DNA of 42,358 nt, taken from a phage. Positions 4,520 to 26,536 of this stretch are shown in pieces. The stretch is from sequence record PV357170.1; one strand, given 5' to 3'. The translations under genes and the position numbers were made by a program. Within the stretch, counting starts at the first letter, position 1; every line of letters begins with the position of its first letter. Below the pieces are notes generated by a model. It saw nothing but the letters and a program-made list of their open reading frames with translations. It was not told the DNA's origin and did no database searches.

Positions 4520-6988
4520 TTAGCAAAAGAAGAATGGAGATTCAAGCACTTGTCGGATGTCCAAAGTACCGATTGCAGGCATCTCTAAATCTGTGAGGTC
4601 TGCCCCTGCTTCGGCAGCTGCCCGGGTAATATCTCCAAGCAGATCGTGCTCCTCGTACAACTTCACAAACTGTTCACGGATATGTCGGTGCAGGGCATCT
4701 ACATCAGCCGCGTGAGTAGCCATTGAGTCGTGAATCGGGACAATATCCAGACCTTCTGCAGCACAGAGCACCATCATGAGGTGTGTGCTATCTAGGCTAT
4801 GCACAAAGTTCGGAGCAATACCGGAGGCAGCCTTGCGCTTATTACAGGTCTTAAAGTCACGGTTGTGCACCAGCACGGCAGATAGGTTCATACAATCAAT
4901 ACGTACACGCACCTCCTCTCGCTGAGAGTACCGGTTCATCACCAGCCCGCCTAGAGGAGTCTTCCACTGCAGATGCTGGCTGGCAGGTACACGCCTAGCG
5001 AGGTTCTGTAGATACCCCATAGCTGCTGCTGCTGCCGGGTTAGCTTCCTCAATAGCGCTACGCATCCTAGGGGCCAGGTAGCAGGATAAGTTCCAGAGAC
5101 TGTGCGTGTCTGTTCCTTCATACCCCTCTTCACAAGCACCTGCAAAGATGTAGTCGCTGCAGCTGCGCACCGTGGCGCTGTAGAAGTAGGTCATGCTAGG
5201 ACGCTTGGTCATGCTTCGAGTGATTTCGTTCTCTCTCCAGTACGTGCTCTGGATAACGAAATCCTCTTTGTCCAGGTCCAGTATCACCTTCTCGTCCGTA
5301 CGGCGCTTCACGTCCATATACAGGTCCGCTTTCTTGTCGTTACCCTCCCAGTACAGGTTAGTCAGGCGCCCGCCTACAGGGTCTCTCAGGAGTGCTGAGA
5401 GGTGCTGTCCACCTGAGTTCGTAGCGTCCATAGCAACCGGAGTTCTGGAGATGTACTCTTCTGGGCACGGAGAATCCAGGGCAGCCACCAGGTCGAGCAC
5501 TGCTGCCAAGAAACACCACGGTGAATCGGCCTGCTTAAAAGCGTCCGAATCAAATAGATTCTCTGCAACTGAGCGGACAACTGCCATATTTTTATCAACC
5601 CAATCTGCGCGGTCTTCGAATAGGGTTTTGTCATAACCAAAGCAAGTGGCGACGTGCACTTTGAGCCAGAACAACCCTCTCTCTCCAAGAGGTTTACCTC
5701 TACCGAATTCCAGCAGAGCCTTCTGCAAATCAGAACCCTGCGGGTGCAATGAGGACTTGAAGTACAGGCGGTAGCGCCAGTCCACACAAGTCGGGAAGTA
5801 CAGGGCTTTCTCATCTTTGAATTCCTCTGCCATCTCCAACGTAGTCAGAAGGCTGCGTAGTTGCGATACACGCTTACGGTCAGCACTGTACCACAGGGAC
5901 ATACGCGTCTTCCACTCACCGAAGCGGTCCAGTTCCTCCTCGGTGTAGTTCTCTTTTGGCACACCATCCAAGTACCACTCCGGCTTCGGCTCCGGTATTG
6001 AGCGGGGCATACCTATCCCAATACCCAGGGCCCGTGCTTCTTGCACCAGTTCCAGTATGCGCTTATTAATGCGGTATGGGGTTTCCTGCGCCTTATTAAG
6101 CGCCTTTTTGATGCCGTCCGCGGCCTTGAATGCTTCTGCTACTTCGCGGAGACGCGCGCGGTCGATGTGCGAGTTATGATAGGTCCCGCGATTGTCGATG
6201 GGAGTAAGGTACCCACCATCCCACATAGTGGTGTGCTGTACTGGTGGCACCAGCATAGGAGGCTTCATGGTTACGGTATCGGCTGACTCCACCAGTTTCT
6301 GGAAGGCCTCCATAACGTCATCAGCCGGGTAGAGCATGCTCAGGTTCCCACTACCTGTCTTCCACTGGAACAGGCCCGTCTCAAACACTGCAGCACACAG
6401 CAGACGCCCTACGGAGATGTTCTGGGCATTGGTCCAAGGCTCGTGCCCATAGTGCACGTTCTCGGCACTGGCACGGAGCGTACGCAGTATGTGCGAAGGG
6501 GACTTCGTACGGCGCTCAGTGAGGTACTCGTACACACGGTCCATGTATGCAGGGGCTACGTTACGTAACTGCAGAGCCAGTAGCTCTGACTGCACATTCC
6601 TACCCAGTGCGGACATTACTGCTTGTGCAGTCTGACGGCGACTGGCGGACTCGCCTGGGGCAACACTGAACGCCTCAAACATTGTGCACAGGCTCAGAGT
6701 AGTTAGGACATCCAAGGGGACTAAGCGTAGGAATCGGCGGTACTTTCCACCGATACCCGGGGCTTTGACATTTCGCATTTCCTCAATGGCTGCAGAGGCC
6801 ACGTCGTACGCAGAGGTTAGCATGCGCTGAGTCATTGGCAGGTTCATAATCCCGCCATTCTGCAGAGCATCGGTAATCAATTTGCGAGCACGTTCAATGC
6901 CGCGAATCTTGTAGGTCTCTTCAAGCTCCAACTGGCGTTCCACCAGTGCTTCCTCTGGTACTACAACCGTATTCAGGGCGCTAATCAT
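4520..6988 (-). CDS. single-subunit DNA-directed RNA polymerase (T7 RNAP family)
   Basis: 822-aa ORF; C-terminal region ...PNFVHSLDSTHL...IHDSMATH... matches the conserved T7 RNAP catalytic/C-terminal motifs; AAGGAGA RBS upstream of ATG at 6988. Confidence 0.9.
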   Translation of the reverse strand: MISALNTVVVPEEALVERQLELEETYKIRGIERARKLITDALQNGGIMNLPMTQRMLTSAYDVASAAIEEMRNVKAPGIGGKYRRFLRLVPLDVLTTLSLCTMFEAFSVAPGESASRRQTAQAVMSALGRNVQSELLALQLRNVAPAYMDRVYEYLTERRTKSPSHILRTLRASAENVHYGHEPWTNAQNISVGRLLCAAVFETGLFQWKTGSGNLSMLYPADDVMEAFQKLVESADTVTMKPPMLVPPVQHTTMWDGGYLTPIDNRGTYHNSHIDRARLREVAEAFKAADGIKKALNKAQETPYRINKRILELVQEARALGIGIGMPRSIPEPKPEWYLDGVPKENYTEEELDRFGEWKTRMSLWYSADRKRVSQLRSLLTTLEMAEEFKDEKALYFPTCVDWRYRLYFKSSLHPQGSDLQKALLEFGRGKPLGERGLFWLKVHVATCFGYDKTLFEDRADWVDKNMAVVRSVAENLFDSDAFKQADSPWCFLAAVLDLVAALDSPCPEEYISRTPVAMDATNSGGQHLSALLRDPVGGRLTNLYWEGNDKKADLYMDVKRRTDEKVILDLDKEDFVIQSTYWRENEITRSMTKRPSMTYFYSATVRSCSDYIFAGACEEGYEGTDTHSLWNLSCYLAPRMRSAIEEANPAAAAAMGYLQNLARRVPASQHLQWKTPLGGLVMNRYSQREEVRVRIDCMNLSAVLVHNRDFKTCNKRKAASGIAPNFVHSLDSTHLMMVLCAAEGLDIVPIHDSMATHAADVDALHRHIREQFVKLYEEHDLLGDITRAAAEAGADLTDLEMPAIGTLDIRQVLESPFFFC

Positions 6989-18963: not shown

Positions 18964-19429
18964 TTGCTTTCCCCTTACGTTTGATATCCATAGCCATGCG
19001 ACGAAGGTCGTGTGCTAGTTGCAGGGCTGCATCAGGACTCATATTAATACCAATCTCCTGCTCTGCCCGGGTGCTGTTCTTTTTAGGAACTATTCCGATG
19101 TAGAGTAGGTTCTCATCAGTCCAACTGCATCTTTCTAGGACTAGCCGCTGGTCGTTGCCGCGGTCGCGCTTGGAGTTCATGTAAGCCACACTAGCTGGAA
19201 CCGGTGGCAGCTCGTCGTCCGGCTCTTGGTACAGCTCAAAGTTAGATGCATACCACGGGTACCAGTCACCATCGATAGTACAATTGTTCAACCGTAACCA
19301 GTGACCGCCTGAGGATATAGCTGTAACTGTGTAGTAATCAAAATCCCCTTGGCGCTTCTTAAACGACGAGCTGTCGTCGGGTGATTTGCGTACTACTTTA
19401 TCACCAACTTTAAACTTAGACATAATCAA
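18956..19429 (-). CDS. hypothetical protein (157 aa)
   Basis: ORF between peptidase-like gene and primase; no motif recognised. Confidence 0.5.
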   Translation of the reverse strand: MIMSKFKVGDKVVRKSPDDSSSFKKRQGDFDYYTVTAISSGGHWLRLNNCTIDGDWYPWYASNFELYQEPDDELPPVPASVAYMNSKRDRGNDQRLVLERCSWTDENLLYIGIVPKKNSTRAEQEIGINMSPDAALQLAHDLRRMAMDIKRKGKANA

Positions 19430-20460
19430 CCCTCCACAATATTATCGTATCCACCCCAGTCCTCTACAACTCGGGTGCCTAGTTCAATCAGCTCTTCTTT
19501 GAAGCCATAATCAGAATACACCATGATGTATTCCGCCGCTCTTGCTGGGTTATCTAGCACCCAGCTAATCAGTTGCTGCTTAGAAAGTTGTGACACCTCC
19601 TTAAACGCTGCTAGTAAATGCGGATCTTCCGCAGGGGGAACATCCAGAGGCATCGTTAGGGGATGCGTATAGGCAGATAACCACGCATCCGGTTCCACTA
19701 CTTTAGGATCACGCTCAATCGGCAGGTGCTTGAATGTACCCGGACTAAGTACGCGCTCCAGTACGCTACCAAGAATGCTAAGGTCCAGCACCTCATCTGG
19801 TGTATGTTCGTGCATGTACCCTACACCTACGTTAGTGCATTCGGGGATAATCTGCATGAACTCAGCAGAGTCAGTGTATACCCCTTTTTGTAAGTGCGCA
19901 TCCGTTCGTCCTAGTCGGGCCGCCAGCTCCTTTGCGAACGTATCAGAACAGCAACGCTGGTATCGTTGATGCGTAATGATCCCATCACCTCGGCGGTCAA
20001 AACTAATCATTGCCTTGACACCAGTCCAGAAGCCAGTGTCGTCCTTGGCGGATGCACTGCTGCCTTCACAGCCTACCTCTTCATCCACGAAGAAGCAGTA
20101 ACGTCCATGTACTCCCCGCTTAATCATCTCCAGCATCAAGTAGATACCAGCACCACAGTCTGCACCTAGACAATCCGCCACCTGTGGATTCCGCAGGAAC
20201 ATTACACCCTTGTTAGTGGTTGCAATGTCTGGCGCAGCACTACCAGGCCGGGCCACTGTGTCGAGGTGCGATGTAAATGCTACATCACTCTGTTCAGAGC
20301 CACCAATAAGCACAAAGTAGTTACCATGAGCATCCCTAACGTAGTGCTCTGCACCAGCAAGAGCGCTACTAAGTAGAGGTTCAAACCATTTGGTACTACC
20401 CCAGCTAGGTCGGTGCGTTGTTAGTATCTTTGTCAGTAGTTTAAGGTCAACACCATACAT
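19426..20460 (-). CDS. Zn-dependent M20/M28/M42-type metallopeptidase-like protein
   Basis: Ordered candidate metal ligands: TSHLDTV (HxD), GADCGAG (D), FFVDEEVG (EE), YMHEHTPDE (H); family cannot be resolved by eye. Confidence 0.5.
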   Translation of the reverse strand: MYGVDLKLLTKILTTHRPSWGSTKWFEPLLSSALAGAEHYVRDAHGNYFVLIGGSEQSDVAFTSHLDTVARPGSAAPDIATTNKGVMFLRNPQVADCLGADCGAGIYLMLEMIKRGVHGRYCFFVDEEVGCEGSSASAKDDTGFWTGVKAMISFDRRGDGIITHQRYQRCCSDTFAKELAARLGRTDAHLQKGVYTDSAEFMQIIPECTNVGVGYMHEHTPDEVLDLSILGSVLERVLSPGTFKHLPIERDPKVVEPDAWLSAYTHPLTMPLDVPPAEDPHLLAAFKEVSQLSKQQLISWVLDNPARAAEYIMVYSDYGFKEELIELGTRVVEDWGGYDNIVEG

Positions 20461-22160
20461 TAAGCTGCCTCCTGTTCTGCTTTAGCTTCTTTGTCTTCTT
20501 CGGCTTCTTCATTACCGAGGTAGGGCTCATCCAATATGGACGCAGCATACTCCGTGAGAATCATACCGTGCACTGGGTGCTCTTCGGCATGCACACTCAG
20601 AACATTGTACCCTTGTACGCACGCCATTGGCTCTTCATCATGCACTGTACCCTCTACAGCACAATGTTCTACGTCCCGGTCAAGTACCCAAGAGTCGTGG
20701 TAGTCAGACCATGAGCAATCCCATGATGGGTACACTATGCTGCGGCCCACTACCTGTACGTAAGTATCACCGATGCAGTGCGGGCATACATAACCACCGT
20801 CACAAGCTACGTACATGTCATCCTCGTCGAAACGTCCCCCACACTCTGCACAAGCACTGCGACCATCATCAATCCAAATGTACCCAGCAGCGTCCTGCGC
20901 TTCGTAGTCGTAGCAGTCGCAGATAACGAATGCATCCCCGCCCAATTCATCCACCCCGTCTTGGCTCCCATCCAAGTACGGCATAAGCACGGCACCTTCA
21001 TTTTCAGGGTGCGGAATACGCGCCAGTAGTACGCCATCTAAGCAGTCTGTATTGCACTCATATCCGTTAGCACGTAGGATGGCATCCGCAGCATCCCCAT
21101 ATGCACGGACATATTCATTGGTTTCGATGTTAACGATAGCACGGGCGTGCACTTCAAAGTCGTCACCAAAAAGTTCCCCAGTATACTGGATGAACAGGCG
21201 CAGATTATTGTCCGGCAAGCCGTGACTAGTCGTAGCGTATACACGCACCGGGCTATCTTCGAAGTTGTATCCGGTCATGCAGCTACGAGGACCATTCTCG
21301 TATGCGTTGTACCACTCCCGCTCGGTCTTACAAAGATATGTAGTAGGCTCCACATTCATAGCTTTGAGGTCTTCAATACATTCCCTGAAGTCTACACCGC
21401 TGCCGTAATAGTTAGCGAGCCACTTACCTACTCGCATCTCTACACAGCGATACTCAGTAACAGCGGCGTAGTCTTTGTGTAATCGCGGCTGCCCCAGCAT
21501 TACTACAGGCTCACCGTTGCGGAAGCCGAAACCTAGTGGGATTGCAAATCTAGATACTACAAATCCGTGCAACTGCATAAGCAAGGTTGCTGCCCAGTAA
21601 TCCCCATCAATTTCACTGTACCCACGAAGGTATTTGCGCCGGAGGGAGTACGTAGGTGCTAGCATAATCTCTTTGAATAACTCTATAGCCTGCTTGTGCA
21701 CCTTGTATCCGGTAAAGTATTGGACCGCTTCTACTACGCGTTCTGTAACTACGTCAGGGCCATCATAGAAGTTTCTGCTAGATAAACCGAATGCTTGGTC
21801 GCAGGTACCTGCACAGCCAAAGAGGTTATGCAGGAGAGTGTCACTAACATCAACCGTGCCCAGCGGCCCAGTATATACACTCAACTCCTCTCCTGCAGCT
21901 GTATAGTTGCCGAGTGCTACATGGTACCCCGGCAGCACCCTTGACAACATATAAAAGCCATTCAAAAGCGCACGGGTTTTGTTACTTTGCACGCGCGCAC
22001 AGCCTTGAGTTGATAGGTAGGGAAGTTGGCACCAGTAATCCCCGGAAGAGTACATACTATCCTTCAGTGGAAGAGCATTGGCCCCTTCTGGAAATTTGAT
22101 GGTCCAACCCTCGTAGGCAGGTACTTTTACGTCTACAGTTACTTTATTAGTCTCTTGCAT
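20460..22160 (-). CDS. large early protein of unknown function with C-terminal Cys-rich (zinc-ribbon-like) region
   Basis: 566 aa from the ATG at 22160 (GGAGAC RBS); C-terminal CAECGG...CPHC cluster and acidic tail; the track ORF extends upstream to 22454 without an RBS. Confidence 0.55.
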   Translation of the reverse strand: MQETNKVTVDVKVPAYEGWTIKFPEGANALPLKDSMYSSGDYWCQLPYLSTQGCARVQSNKTRALLNGFYMLSRVLPGYHVALGNYTAAGEELSVYTGPLGTVDVSDTLLHNLFGCAGTCDQAFGLSSRNFYDGPDVVTERVVEAVQYFTGYKVHKQAIELFKEIMLAPTYSLRRKYLRGYSEIDGDYWAATLLMQLHGFVVSRFAIPLGFGFRNGEPVVMLGQPRLHKDYAAVTEYRCVEMRVGKWLANYYGSGVDFRECIEDLKAMNVEPTTYLCKTEREWYNAYENGPRSCMTGYNFEDSPVRVYATTSHGLPDNNLRLFIQYTGELFGDDFEVHARAIVNIETNEYVRAYGDAADAILRANGYECNTDCLDGVLLARIPHPENEGAVLMPYLDGSQDGVDELGGDAFVICDCYDYEAQDAAGYIWIDDGRSACAECGGRFDEDDMYVACDGGYVCPHCIGDTYVQVVGRSIVYPSWDCSWSDYHDSWVLDRDVEHCAVEGTVHDEEPMACVQGYNVLSVHAEEHPVHGMILTEYAASILDEPYLGNEEAEEDKEAKAEQEAA

Positions 22161-22206
22161 TTTCTTTGTCTCCGGTGTTAGTAGTATCTCATCATGCATT
22201 AAAAGT

Positions 22207-22551
22207 TCAGCGTGCATACCACGCTGAGAGTTGTCGCTGCTTATAATACGAGCGCACAGCCGCCCTAAATCTTGTATAGGCTCCACGATACCCGTACCGT
22301 AGGAGTGCTGCAACCACATCGAACGAAATGTGCTCTTGCAATCTGCGCGCGGCAGACTCTGTATACTCTCGATAGGTTGTGAGAACAGTGCCAATACCCT
22401 CTTTTCTAACGCGGAGTAATCGGCGCTCGACTGGCACGATTTGCTTGAGTTCATCTGGAACCTCTTTGAATATTTCCCACGAGCACCCGCACTTGCCCTG
22501 CGTTTCTAGCAAGCGCCAGCACAGTAGCGCTGTTTCGTCTACTGTAAGCAT
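22207..22551 (-). CDS. hypothetical early protein (114 aa)
   Basis: ATG at 22551 with AAGGA RBS placed right after the upstream gene stop; track ORF starts earlier. Confidence 0.45.
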   Translation of the reverse strand: MLTVDETALLCWRLLETQGKCGCSWEIFKEVPDELKQIVPVERRLLRVRKEGIGTVLTTYREYTESAARRLQEHISFDVVAALLRYGYRGAYTRFRAAVRSYYKQRQLSAWYAR

Positions 22552-23418: not shown

Positions 23419-23606
23419 TTGAAACCTCGTTGTTAACGGTATTCACGTAGCGCCCCGCAGGACGCTATAGGCTTACCATTATACGTATTCTCCCAATCCC
23501 TCATAGTGCCACCTGTTATGGCGGCCCCGGGTTGGCACATCAAAGGCGTCAGAGTCGTTAGCTGCCGGAATCAATGCCCACCACTTGATAGCTTGAATCT
23601 TATAAA

Positions 23607-24182: not shown

Positions 24183-24260
24183 GATACACCTCATCGATTG
24201 TTGATTGTTTACCTAACGAATTACTTCACATAGCACCCCATAGGATGCTATAGGCTGTAA

Positions 24261-24458
24261 TTAATACCCAAATTGGGAGTTAACAGTAGGCCACCCGTTG
24301 GGTTGCTTGCTACTACCTCTTTGTTTTTGCTTCCCTCGTACCCTAGTAGCGTCGGTTAACCCTTGTTTACTAGGTTTAACTAATAACCTCATATCATCCG
24401 TCGGGTTAGTTGACAACTCCCAATTACGCTTTAATGCTAAACGCTTTGCTTTACGCAT
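24261..24458 (-). CDS. possible first early gene: small basic protein (65 aa)
   Basis: ATG at 24458 with AAGGGG 7 nt upstream; lies inside otherwise non-coding DNA, so may be spurious. Confidence 0.25.
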   Translation of the reverse strand: MRKAKRLALKRNWELSTNPTDDMRLLVKPSKQGLTDATRVRGKQKQRGSSKQPNGWPTVNSQFGY

Positions 24459-25100
24459 AAACTTGCCCCTTAGAGAATATAATCTAGCGCAGCCTCATTA
24501 CTACTGCGCTATGTTATACACTCTTTGCGGGATACACTCCGCGCCTTGTTCCCTCGATTCAGAGGAGCGTGCTGCTCACGCCTCGGCAGTAAGGTTTGCC
24601 TCAGAACCCCGGTGATAACGTCCGGCACGTTTACTCTTTATGACTGATTATCTAGGATTGGTCGTCATCGTACCAGTCAAGGTACTGGGCCTCCCCGCAA
24701 ACCAGCTTACTACGTTGTTCGCTATCTAAGTTACTAGGTGAATCTGAACTTGTCAAGCGTTATTTCTTACTTTTAAGCCGTCCGGTTTATGTGTCCGGTC
24801 ACCTGTAGCGGCTTGCTACGTGGAGGTGTCCTAGTTAGCGGCCTGTCTTCAACTATCCTGCCGTACTACTTGGATTCAATCTAGCTTATGTTCTTCGCGG
24901 TGTCAACTCTTTTATCGAGTATCTAACCCTTCACACCATCTAGCTTTAATCCGGTGGAGTCTCCCGACTCTACCCCGGTTAGCGCCTCAGTGCCTCCCGG
25001 TGATTGAACTATAACGCTAACAAACCAAAATAAGCAAGTACTTTTTGCAATTATTTATCTCTAAGAGCAAAAAGGGTAAGCAAGGCAATGGTTTAGTCAA
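24459..25100 (-). promoter_or_regulatory. probable early promoter / leader region (no individual promoter pinpointed)
   Basis: Non-coding DNA directly upstream of the first early genes; only weak -35/-10 candidates found by eye (e.g. TTGACA near 24751-24756 with a poor -10). Confidence 0.3.
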
Positions 25101-25110
25101 TGCTTCCATT

Positions 25111-25714
25111 CTAGGGATAGCTCTAGGGATAGCCCACTACTAGCCAATGCTAACCAATACAATCTAACGCTACACAAAGCAGAACGTAGTGCCCGTACGA
25201 AGTGAAAGGGCACGTAGTGATGCGGTGACTGTGTTGGTAATGCTTACTCCCTACGGTCGTAATATAGGGCATTACTAGGGGATACTAGTGAGTAGTAGTA
25301 AGTAGTATGTATCTAGTGCCCTAAAACCCTCCTACTCGTGTAACATCATTTCAAATTAGCTTTCGAATGAAAGTAAGGGTGAAGGGATAGCTCTAGGGAT
25401 AGCGACAGAGTCCGGCAGAGTGTAGCGGATAGTGGCGGGTAGTGGATGTGCGCCCTAGTGGGGAGCGCGCAGCGTAACATATAATCGGCGCAATGTAAAG
25501 CACTAGAGATAACCTTAGAGATAGCTCTAGAGATAGCATATAGACGCACTAGCAGCGCACTGGGCGGCCCACTACGGCCCACTAGGTGTGGCACTATGGC
25601 TGCACAAAATAAGCAAGGCAGAGCGCACCCCTATGGCCCACAGGGAGCGCACAGGAAGCGCCCTAGTGAACGCACAGGCATAGCCGTAGGGTAGCACTAG
25701 CGATAGCCCTAGCG
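25111..25714. repeat. array of short direct repeats: 11-bp motif CTAG(R)GATA(G/A)C in 8 or more copies, including a 21-bp unit present three times
   Basis: agggatagctctagggatagc at ~25113-25133 and ~25383-25403 (identical) and the G-to-A variant agagatagctctagagatagc at ~25517-25537; further copies at ~25503-25513 and ~25697-25707; tandem ggcccactac/ggcccactag at ~25566-25585. Confidence 0.75.
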
Positions 25715-25809
25715 CAGCGCAGAGAGCCGCTGAGAGCGCCATAGAGGCACTGGCAGGCCCCAGGCTGCCCGCGGCCATCTAGACGTCCAGACATCCAGCC
25801 ACCTAGATA

Positions 25810-25819
25810 CCCCCCCCCC
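25810..25819. repeat. C10 homopolymer tract
   Basis: Uninterrupted run of ten C in the non-coding region, about 230 bp from a G11 run on the same strand. Confidence 0.8.
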
Positions 25820-26026
25820 TAAATTCTCCCAGGACACCCCCTATGGGGGCAATTGGGCGCGTTGAGGGTGAGGGACCCTGTCGGGTAAGTATAACAAATT
25901 TCGAGTTCAGATATACACCTGCGCAGGGGGAGAAGTCCTTGTGATGTTCCAGGCGCTTCTCTTGTACCCACTTGCAGATAACTTCGTATATGCACCTGGA
26001 ATAGTACTTATAAATACTAACCTACA

Positions 26027-26063
26027 AAAGGAAAAGCCCCCAACTACAGGGGGGGGGGGCTTT
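26027..26063 (-). terminator. Rho-independent terminator ending the late transcription unit
   Basis: Minus-strand RNA: GCCCCC...GGGGGC GC hairpin (includes the C/G homopolymer) followed by UUUUCCUUUU, directly after the stop of the last late ORF. Confidence 0.5.
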
Positions 26064-26065
26064 GT

Positions 26066-26536
26066 TTAAAACAATAAGTATTCCACTGTAGATGGAAGTT
26101 GGACACCTACTGCTACAGGCCTGTTTACTGTAATTACGCCAGCAGCGCAGGAAGCAGTATCGTTTACAGTAGCTGGATTATCTACCCATGGGCGAACGCT
26201 ATACGACTTAGTTGTATCTGCATTAGGTATAGTTAATGTTCCTGAAGTGGCCCCACTAGCAACAGCAAGTGCACCTAAGTCTACATTACCGGCAGAGTGT
26301 ACTAATACTCCGGCAGGACTAAGGCTTACAACAGTAACCCCAGAACCAATATCAGCAGGTAATGAGTAAGCACGCTGTGTCACTTTGTCATAGATGACTT
26401 TGTAACCAGCAAGCAGAGCACCCACTGAGAAGTAAACAACCTCTGATTGCTTAACTCCGAAGTGTCGAGCCACTGCTTGTTTATTAGTTAAGATTCCCGT
26501 TGAACCTTTACCATCTTGTGAGAACATTTCGTTCAT
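26066..26536 (-). CDS. hypothetical late protein (156 aa), Gly/Ala/Val/Thr-rich, encoded after the tailspike
   Basis: GAGG RBS upstream of the ATG at 26536; bracketed by a hairpin upstream and a terminator downstream; beta-rich composition resembles fibre or receptor-binding accessory proteins. Confidence 0.5.
   Translation of the reverse strand: MNEMFSQDGKGSTGILTNKQAVARHFGVKQSEVVYFSVGALLAGYKVIYDKVTQRAYSLPADIGSGVTVVSLSPAGVLVHSAGNVDLGALAVASGATSGTLTIPNADTTKSYSVRPWVDNPATVNDTASCAAGVITVNRPVAVGVQLPSTVEYLLF

Follow-up and report, generated by a model that had tools for sequence, protein, structure and literature searches.

Organization of the locus

The window analysed here is the complete 42,358-nt stretch of phage DNA in sequence record PV357170.1. 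We examined a gene at positions 20460-22160 of its minus strand, which encodes a 566-amino acid (aa) protein of the KP34 gp10/PHROG 6980 family (hereafter, the gp10-like protein), together with the adjoining metallopeptidase gene. The window is the genome of a Drulisvirus (KP34-like; Autographiviridae, Slopekvirinae). In the region of the gene, its nucleotide identity is 94% with Minorna, a phage of Escherichia, and 93% with KPV811, a phage of Klebsiella; these two are also Drulisvirus. A preliminary description, made from the sequence alone, had delimited the 566-aa open reading frame (ORF) exactly.

All the long ORFs of the window are on the minus strand. In the order of this strand, an ORF-poor stretch (ca. 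26.0-24.3 kb) is followed by small ORFs, the gp10-like gene and the gene for an M28-like peptidase. Genes for a Toprim primase, a DnaB-like helicase, a family-A DNA polymerase and then a single-subunit RNA polymerase (6988-4520) lie 3' of the peptidase gene; the structural and lysis genes come after the RNA polymerase gene and wrap round the window ends. This is the phiKMV/KP34 layout, in which the RNA polymerase gene ends the DNA-metabolism block, and not the T7 layout, so the phage is a phiKMV/KP34-like Drulisvirus instead of the T7-type phage first supposed. The gene was correctly placed in the early region, between small early ORFs and the replication genes (primase, helicase and DNA polymerase). 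In KP34, the phage RNA polymerase has its promoters at its own gene or downstream of it, which leaves transcription of the early and DNA-metabolism genes to the host enzyme (PMC6834552).

The features of the locus are as follows; pLDDT is the per-residue confidence of the AlphaFold (AF2) model, and SD is the Shine-Dalgarno sequence.

20460..22160, minus: coding sequence of the 566-aa protein (KP34 gp10/PHROG 6980 family), from ATG 22160 to TAA 20462-20460
22170..22173, minus: SD GGAG, 9 nt before ATG 22160
22161..22454, minus: in-frame upstream extension of 98 codons from ATG 22454, with SD AAGAGG; part of the gene in many records
22207..22551, minus: upstream gene of 114 aa (phrog_6167) in another frame, which is under purifying selection in the overlap
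21459..22160, minus: N-terminal part particular to the lineage (aa 1-234), with conservation restricted to Drulisvirus-like phages and a model of low to moderate confidence
20721..21458, minus: conserved family core (aa 235-480), found in 1122 clusters; pLDDT ca. 85-94 from aa 270, predicted fold weakly GNAT-like
21276..21284, minus: Ser293-Cys294-Met295 ('GPxSCM' motif), invariant; candidate catalytic or ligand-binding cysteine
21096..21107, minus: Arg352-Ala-Tyr354-Gly355, at the end of predicted strand 349-355 and before predicted helix 358-364, the position of GNAT motif A
20967..20981, minus: Pro394-Tyr395-Leu-Asp397-Gly motif, with Tyr and Asp invariant
20775..20852, minus: Cys4 zinc ribbon CAEC-x18-CPHC (C437, C440, C459, C462), assigned from sequence conservation
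20526..20774, minus: acidic stack of short beta-hairpins (aa 463-545), with extra Cys and His conserved within Drulisvirus
20463..20525, minus: disordered acidic tail ending in Glu-Ala-Ala, whose last codons (cag gag gca gct) are also the SD of the next gene
19426..20460, minus: gene for the partner, a metallopeptidase of clan MH (M28/M20-like; 344 aa) that carries the motifs HxD, GADx, EE, D and H; the start codon overlaps the stop codon of the gp10-like gene

The gp10-like gene is a conserved core gene

Substitutions among seven Drulisvirus genomes peak, 3' of position 22160, at the third codon position of the ORF (77 versus 34/43, and 74 versus 48/36). Homologous proteins form more than 400 clusters at 90% identity, and 306 phage records carry the gene. 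These data, together with the conservation of the ribbon cysteines, place the ORF far beyond a chance reading frame. KP34p10 is listed as a core gene in the description of the genus, adjoining a 'putative peptidase', KP34p11 (PMC4411677). As a whole, the comparisons show a real and conserved core gene of the KP34-like phages of Klebsiella and E. coli, which looks expressed and is probably of essential type. The gene itself is not new, being present as 'hypothetical protein' in hundreds of GenBank records, and no functional study of the family turned up in our searches of the literature. As far as we could establish with these searches, and to our knowledge, the novelty lies in the superfamily core, the obligatory pairing with a peptidase, the acidity, the Ala-Ala terminus and the start-site and dual-coding issue.

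The product, of ca. 64 kDa, contains 20 Cys (3.5%), a CAEC...CPHC cluster towards its C-terminus and a final segment of 21 residues, PYLGNEEAEEDKEAKAEQEAA, with eight acidic and two basic residues, which bears out the abundant cysteines, the CxxC...CPxC cluster and the acidic tail of the preliminary description. It matched the entire length of profile phrog_6980 (E=0, 1178 bits), as did 50 out of 50 diverse relatives, and more distantly phrog_13313, both PHROGs being of unknown function. Searches of Pfam, NCBIfam, PADLOC and the sequences of the PDB gave no match for the 566-aa protein, and those of Pfam and NCBIfam assigned none of the 50 relatives to any family. Likewise, 43 core segments retrieved from Pfam and NCBIfam, at E≤10, zinc-ribbon models only, and a profile search of PDB sequences gave zinc-finger noise only. 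The lack of an assignable motif noticed at first was thus reproduced, and no confident homology to a known housekeeping phage protein emerged from these searches.

Using a family profile of 26 homologs against 1.84 billion representatives (threshold E≤1e-3), we retrieved 1122 representative clusters, at the 50% identity level, that share a core of ca. 245 residues (aa 235-480), flanked by variable N-termini and C-terminal extensions. Two rounds of a word-indexed homology search, meant to extend the alignment, yielded only 15 and 9 distant sequences. Cultured carriers comprise Drulisvirus, the Vibrio Maculvirus VP93 (ORF6), the Pectobacterium Phimunavirus PP90 (orf08), a Pseudomonas putida Kantovirus, Shigella phage Buco and Caulobacter phage Lullwater, and the family is also found in many uncultured freshwater and marine phages. 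The protein resembles KP34 gp10/PHROG 6980 in its full-length profile match, genome position and peptidase neighbour; it differs in that many records annotate a form of 664 aa, and membership of this family gives no mechanism. A family of more than 1100 clusters devoid of a Pfam model has now a defined core, a set of invariant residues and a peptidase partner. In addition, it includes one of the largest non-structural core genes of Drulisvirus, a group that ranks among the phages most often applied against multidrug-resistant Klebsiella.

Start site and possible dual coding

The reading frame is open up to ATG 22454, which would give 664 aa, as foreseen when it was described as possibly longer through an upstream start. 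It is annotated in this form in Minorna, KPV811 and SFN6B, among many others, while other records annotate it from the internal ATG. The product of 566 aa from ATG 22160 is the supported form, on account of the codon-position statistics, the conserved GGAG SD and the residues K98-M99-Q100 at this ATG, which 26 homologs share without exception. In the overlap with the 114-aa gene, substitutions in the seven genomes peak at the third position of the small gene, which is the second of the extension frame (73 versus 30/39). They follow, that is, the frame of the 114-aa gene, and the extension is therefore free of amino-acid constraint; its pLDDT is below 30. This result corrects a common annotation problem, of 664 versus 566 aa.

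The extension frame lacks stop codons along the 82-codon overlap in six of the seven genomes, where 3.6-4.1 stops would be expected (P 0.002-0.006 with synonymous recoding of the 114-aa gene), and only 2.7% of the 82-codon windows in the same phase are open genome-wide. We had first concluded that the extension was a mere mis-annotation, which we softened since the frame is significantly stop-free. The stop-free frame at 22161-22454 over the gene at 22207-22551 may reflect dual coding, and a minor long isoform (664 aa) from ATG 22454 is possible. Nested in-frame starts are found in gene 4A/4B of T7. The gp10-like gene has, similarly, two in-frame ATGs (22454 and 22160), each with its SD, separated by an open frame, but its upstream segment overlaps a conserved gene in another frame and is devoid of amino-acid constraint.

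The stop codon of the 114-aa gene falls within an 8-bp GC-rich hairpin at 22207-22227 of the minus strand (dG -15.7, z -2.6). After the hairpin comes ACTTTTAATG, a short distance 5' of the SD of the gp10-like gene; the hairpin may be an attenuator or a processing site.

A conserved core with a zinc ribbon and a weakly GNAT-like predicted fold

Relatives with 20-25% identity all retain residues Y287, S293-C294-M295, Y308, R340, Y395, D397 and G426, and conservation is at least 90% for R352, Y354, G355 and P394. The four ribbon cysteines (C437, C440, C459 and C462) are either invariant or at least 90% conserved at this distance. From this conservation, the two CxxC pairs, ca. 18 residues apart and kept throughout the family, make up a predicted Cys4 zinc ribbon; relatives show weak matches to Pfam zinc-ribbon models, and short hairpins are modelled at this position. 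We considered whether the ribbon could be a trans-acting zinc-binding domain of the primase, and rejected it, as a Cys4 motif is already present in the primase itself.

AlphaFold produced a poor model (pLDDT 50) with 26 close homologs, and a better one with 36 homologs including 22 distant ones, in which pLDDT is 85-94 for approximately residues 270-550 and below 50 for the N-terminal 225 residues. In the improved model, the ribbon leads into some ten short strands (aa 467-535), after which comes a helical or disordered acidic tail. Foldseek found no significant match in the PDB, the best being LIM domains, on the Cys-rich hairpins, followed by entries of PatZ and MYST. From BFVD we retrieved only uncharacterised phage proteins and one 'amidoligase', matching over 117 columns.

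Within the predicted fold, R352-A-Y-G355-D-A357 lies where motif A of a GNAT protein (Q/R-x-x-G-x-G/A, at the beta4-alpha3 junction) would be located; R352 and G355 are conserved in at least 90% of the family, and the third position varies in it. We take the GNAT-like core as the best available lead, not as established. Should this lead fail, the protein would be even further from anything known. The kinds of GNAT-fold acyl- and aminoacyl-transferases compared include acetyltransferases, FemA, Ate1 and the MYST histone acetyltransferases; in FemA, Ate1 and the MYST enzymes, a zinc finger occurs together with a GNAT-like core and a Cys in the active site. The candidate enzyme of the preliminary description is thus plausible, given the Ser-Cys-Met, Arg, Tyr and Asp residues that are invariant at less than 25% identity and the weakly GNAT-like model, from which we infer that the core may be an enzyme, most plausibly a GNAT-type transferase.

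Pairing with a metallopeptidase

The start codon of the peptidase gene overlaps the stop codon of the gp10-like gene as TAATG, and this arrangement makes it likely that both genes are translationally coupled. The peptidase matched Peptidase_M28 of Pfam with 22.7 bits (cut-off, 21.3) and phrog_4191, 'peptidase', with E 2e-143. We read the context of the family in Drulisvirus, VP93, PP90, Pseudomonas phage C171 and eight metagenomic contigs, the latter with seven distinct distant members because two of them (L009 and L010) carry the same family protein. In all 12 of the 12 lineages checked, an M28-like peptidase gene was located 0-1 genes downstream of the gp10-like homolog. The partner peptidases show 36-37% identity with that of the window, or match by hidden Markov model (HMM) with E 1e-33 to 1e-126, and the metal-ligand motifs HLDTV, GADC, DEE, FDRRG/TDS and EHT are conserved in seven partners.

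This deep synteny bears on the possibility, suggested previously, that the gene is an accessory anti-defence factor. We disfavour it because KP34p10 is a core gene and remains paired with this peptidase even in phages that are very distant; variable accessory genes usually behave otherwise.

The strict synteny and the likely translational coupling would also fit a gp10-like protein that is a substrate of the peptidase or serves it as chaperone or regulatory subunit; the effector would then be the peptidase, and its partner might be terminally trimmed, with the conserved terminal residues described below as a possible processing site. Enzymes of clan MH are mostly exopeptidases and do not need a large partner, and the pocket of invariant Cys, Arg, Tyr and Asp suggests that the gp10-like protein has an activity of its own, so that we consider this role quite unlikely.

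Other characteristics of the partners and their surroundings deserve mention. Two motifs are common to the peptidase of the window and those of contexts L007 to L018, namely Cys-Cys-Ser-Asp, which looks invariant and reads RCCSD in the window, and PECTN-x-VGY-x-EH; neither is a classical M28 signature. Their last ca. 100 residues are unrelated to the known lid domains of M20/M28 enzymes. In Pseudomonas phage YMC11/06/C171_PPU_BP (context L013; KU310944, positions 4772-5574), the peptidase is split into two ORFs, C171_00210 and C171_00220, which match the peptidase HMM with E 1e-36 and 2e-33, respectively, which suggests a pseudogene, a frameshift or an error of sequencing. A TROVE (Ro60-like) protein is encoded directly 5' of the gp10-like homolog in contig L011 (6306-7754). 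In contig L009 (4084-6413), genes for a 377-aa protein and for a DUF2201 (VWA/metallopeptidase-like) protein lie 3' of the gene pair, and likewise in L010.

Acidity of the family

The 566-aa protein contains 89 Asp plus Glu versus 41 Lys plus Arg, for a net charge of -48. This is a property of the family, with a median net charge of -41 and with 93% of 131 diverse members below -20.

Such charge raises the possibility of a non-enzymatic acidic decoy or nucleic-acid mimic that, as with Ocr or ArdA, would block basic host DNA- or RNA-binding proteins, through the ribbon, hairpin and tail region especially; possible targets would be restriction or BREX-type defences, RNA polymerase or nucleoid proteins. 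Its likeness to Ocr and ArdA resides in the very negative net charge and in the location of the gene on the early side of the genome, and one GenBank record calls a homolog 'putative DNA mimic protein'. However, with its 566 aa it is 4-5 times larger than those proteins, and residues of catalytic appearance (Cys, Arg, Tyr and Asp), for which a decoy has no need, are invariant in its compact core; it also carries a zinc ribbon. Moreover, a decoy does not explain the obligatory peptidase partner, core-gene status and wide conservation are unlike those of typical anti-restriction genes, and fold comparisons of the model found no structural similarity to known mimics. We therefore regard a decoy as unlikely.

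A C-terminal Ala-Ala

The protein of the window ends in AEQEAA, within a tail of lower pLDDT that has a terminal helix in the model, and 114 of 120 close homologs also end in Glu-Ala-Ala. Among the 131 diverse representatives, the C-terminal residue is Ala in 88 (67%), and 60 (46%) end in Ala-Ala, for which only 0.6% would be expected from composition. Position -3 of these 60 proteins is occupied by L, I or V in 30 cases and by Glu in 12. We evaluated whether the Ala-Ala could arise simply because its codons serve as SD for the peptidase gene. For the window this is true in part, and we rejected it as a general explanation given that members with gaps of 30-70 nt between both genes still end in Ala. 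The distribution of terminal residues in these alignments shows that the C-terminal Ala(-Ala) of the family is selected.

In Escherichia coli, the strongest C-degrons of ClpXP depend critically on an Ala-Ala at the very end, and acidic residues upstream of it were unfavourable in a degron screen (PMC10862746). The tail of the gp10-like protein would be like the ssrA tag and other C-motif-1 degrons of ClpX (...YALAA) in displaying an Ala-Ala carboxylate on a flexible segment; it differs in being encoded by the gene instead of added by tmRNA, and in that the preceding residues are acidic.

These termini could belong to a factor directed at ClpXP, either jamming or titrating the protease, with protection of phage proteins, or acting as an adaptor that drags host proteins into it. 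The frequency of Ala-Ala among diverse members, often as L/I/V-Ala-Ala, its dominance in strong ClpXP degrons (PMC10862746) and the order of parts in the model (tail, linker and a metal-stabilised beta structure) are in favour of such a factor. Nevertheless, one third of the members lack a terminal Ala, acidic upstream residues disfavour recognition, and both the catalytic-looking core and the peptidase partner would be left unexplained, so we consider such a factor quite unlikely.

The tail is also relevant to a possible function as a replication accessory, with the acidic segment docked on the phage DNA polymerase or helicase and the ribbon in contact with DNA. The gene is directly 5' of those for primase, helicase and DNA polymerase in all genomes examined, and a disordered acidic tail along with a zinc ribbon would suit this function. 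The gp2.5 and gp4 proteins of T7 dock through acidic C-terminal tails, and tails of the T7 type end in an aromatic residue, unlike the Ala-Ala seen here. Besides, the primase already contains a Cys4 motif, the whole protein is acidic, which is unfavourable for contact with DNA, and the peptidase has no place in a replisome. For these reasons, a role in replication appears very improbable.

A possible early host-takeover module

No single one of these alternatives accounts for all the features. As a tentative reading, which may well prove wrong, we propose that the gp10-like protein and the peptidase could form an early two-enzyme module for host takeover, composed of a transferase and a peptidase, with a lifetime limited by ClpXP. 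The module would be transcribed by the host RNA polymerase, since the promoters of the phage enzyme lie downstream of its gene. The GNAT-like core would act as an acyl- or aminoacyl-transferase and modify a basic host protein or peptide by means of the Ser-Cys-Met, Arg and Tyr-x-Asp residues; the acidic arm of ribbon and hairpins would hold this basic substrate, and the peptidase would trim it. Lastly, the ssrA-like C-terminus would make the gp10-like protein a client of ClpXP, confining its activity to the early phase.

Several observations weigh against this proposal. The GNAT family was not detected at sequence level, even at E≤10, in the protein, the 50 relatives or the 43 core segments; the data indicate neither a substrate nor a chemistry; and the strongly acidic surface equally fits a pure binding or decoy protein. 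As to the tail, Glu at position -3 and the acidic context in the window are contrary to the preferences reported for ClpXP (PMC10862746), and the roughly one third of members that do not end in Ala include VP93, which ends in EDEDEE. In addition, the Glu-Ala-Ala codons of the window overlap the SD of the peptidase gene and, therefore, are possibly constrained for another reason.

A more far-reaching version, which we consider highly unlikely, is that both proteins constitute a widespread and so far unrecognised phage system that rewires host AAA+ proteolysis; a GNAT-like acyl- or aminoacyl-transferase and an aminopeptidase would jointly write degrons on the termini of host proteins, with the tie of the transferase's own Ala-Ala to ClpXP as a timer, decoy or adaptor. 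If a module of this type does modify host proteins or engage Clp proteases, it would represent a new principle of host takeover common to many podophages.

Other features of the genome

Scans for promoters and terminators flanking the gp10-like gene gave chance-level results only. Further upstream, the region 24300-26066 is poor in ORFs, GC and AT skews switch sign in it, and it contains a sigma-70-like sequence, TTGACA-17-TAGATT, at 24906-24878. It probably comprises the genome ends plus the early promoter region, and the window would therefore be a circular permutation of the phage genome.

There are two copies, at 23442-23473 and 24225-24256 of the minus strand, of a 32-nt element formerly predicted as a Kp34likevirus phage promoter, which is not used by the KP34 RNA polymerase in vitro (PMC6834552). 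Both are located within long interrupted hairpins (dG -22.9 and -17.4 kcal/mol; z -3.3 and -2.9, respectively). The inner and outer stems of these hairpins keep pairing through differing sequences, and so they resemble sites of RNase III-type processing in the early transcript.

Finally, the 1420-aa internal virion protein encoded at 33220-37482 of the minus strand contains a bona fide GNAT acetyltransferase domain of Pfam (aa 311-384; E 6e-7) and, as a possible ejected acetyltransferase, deserves a separate look.

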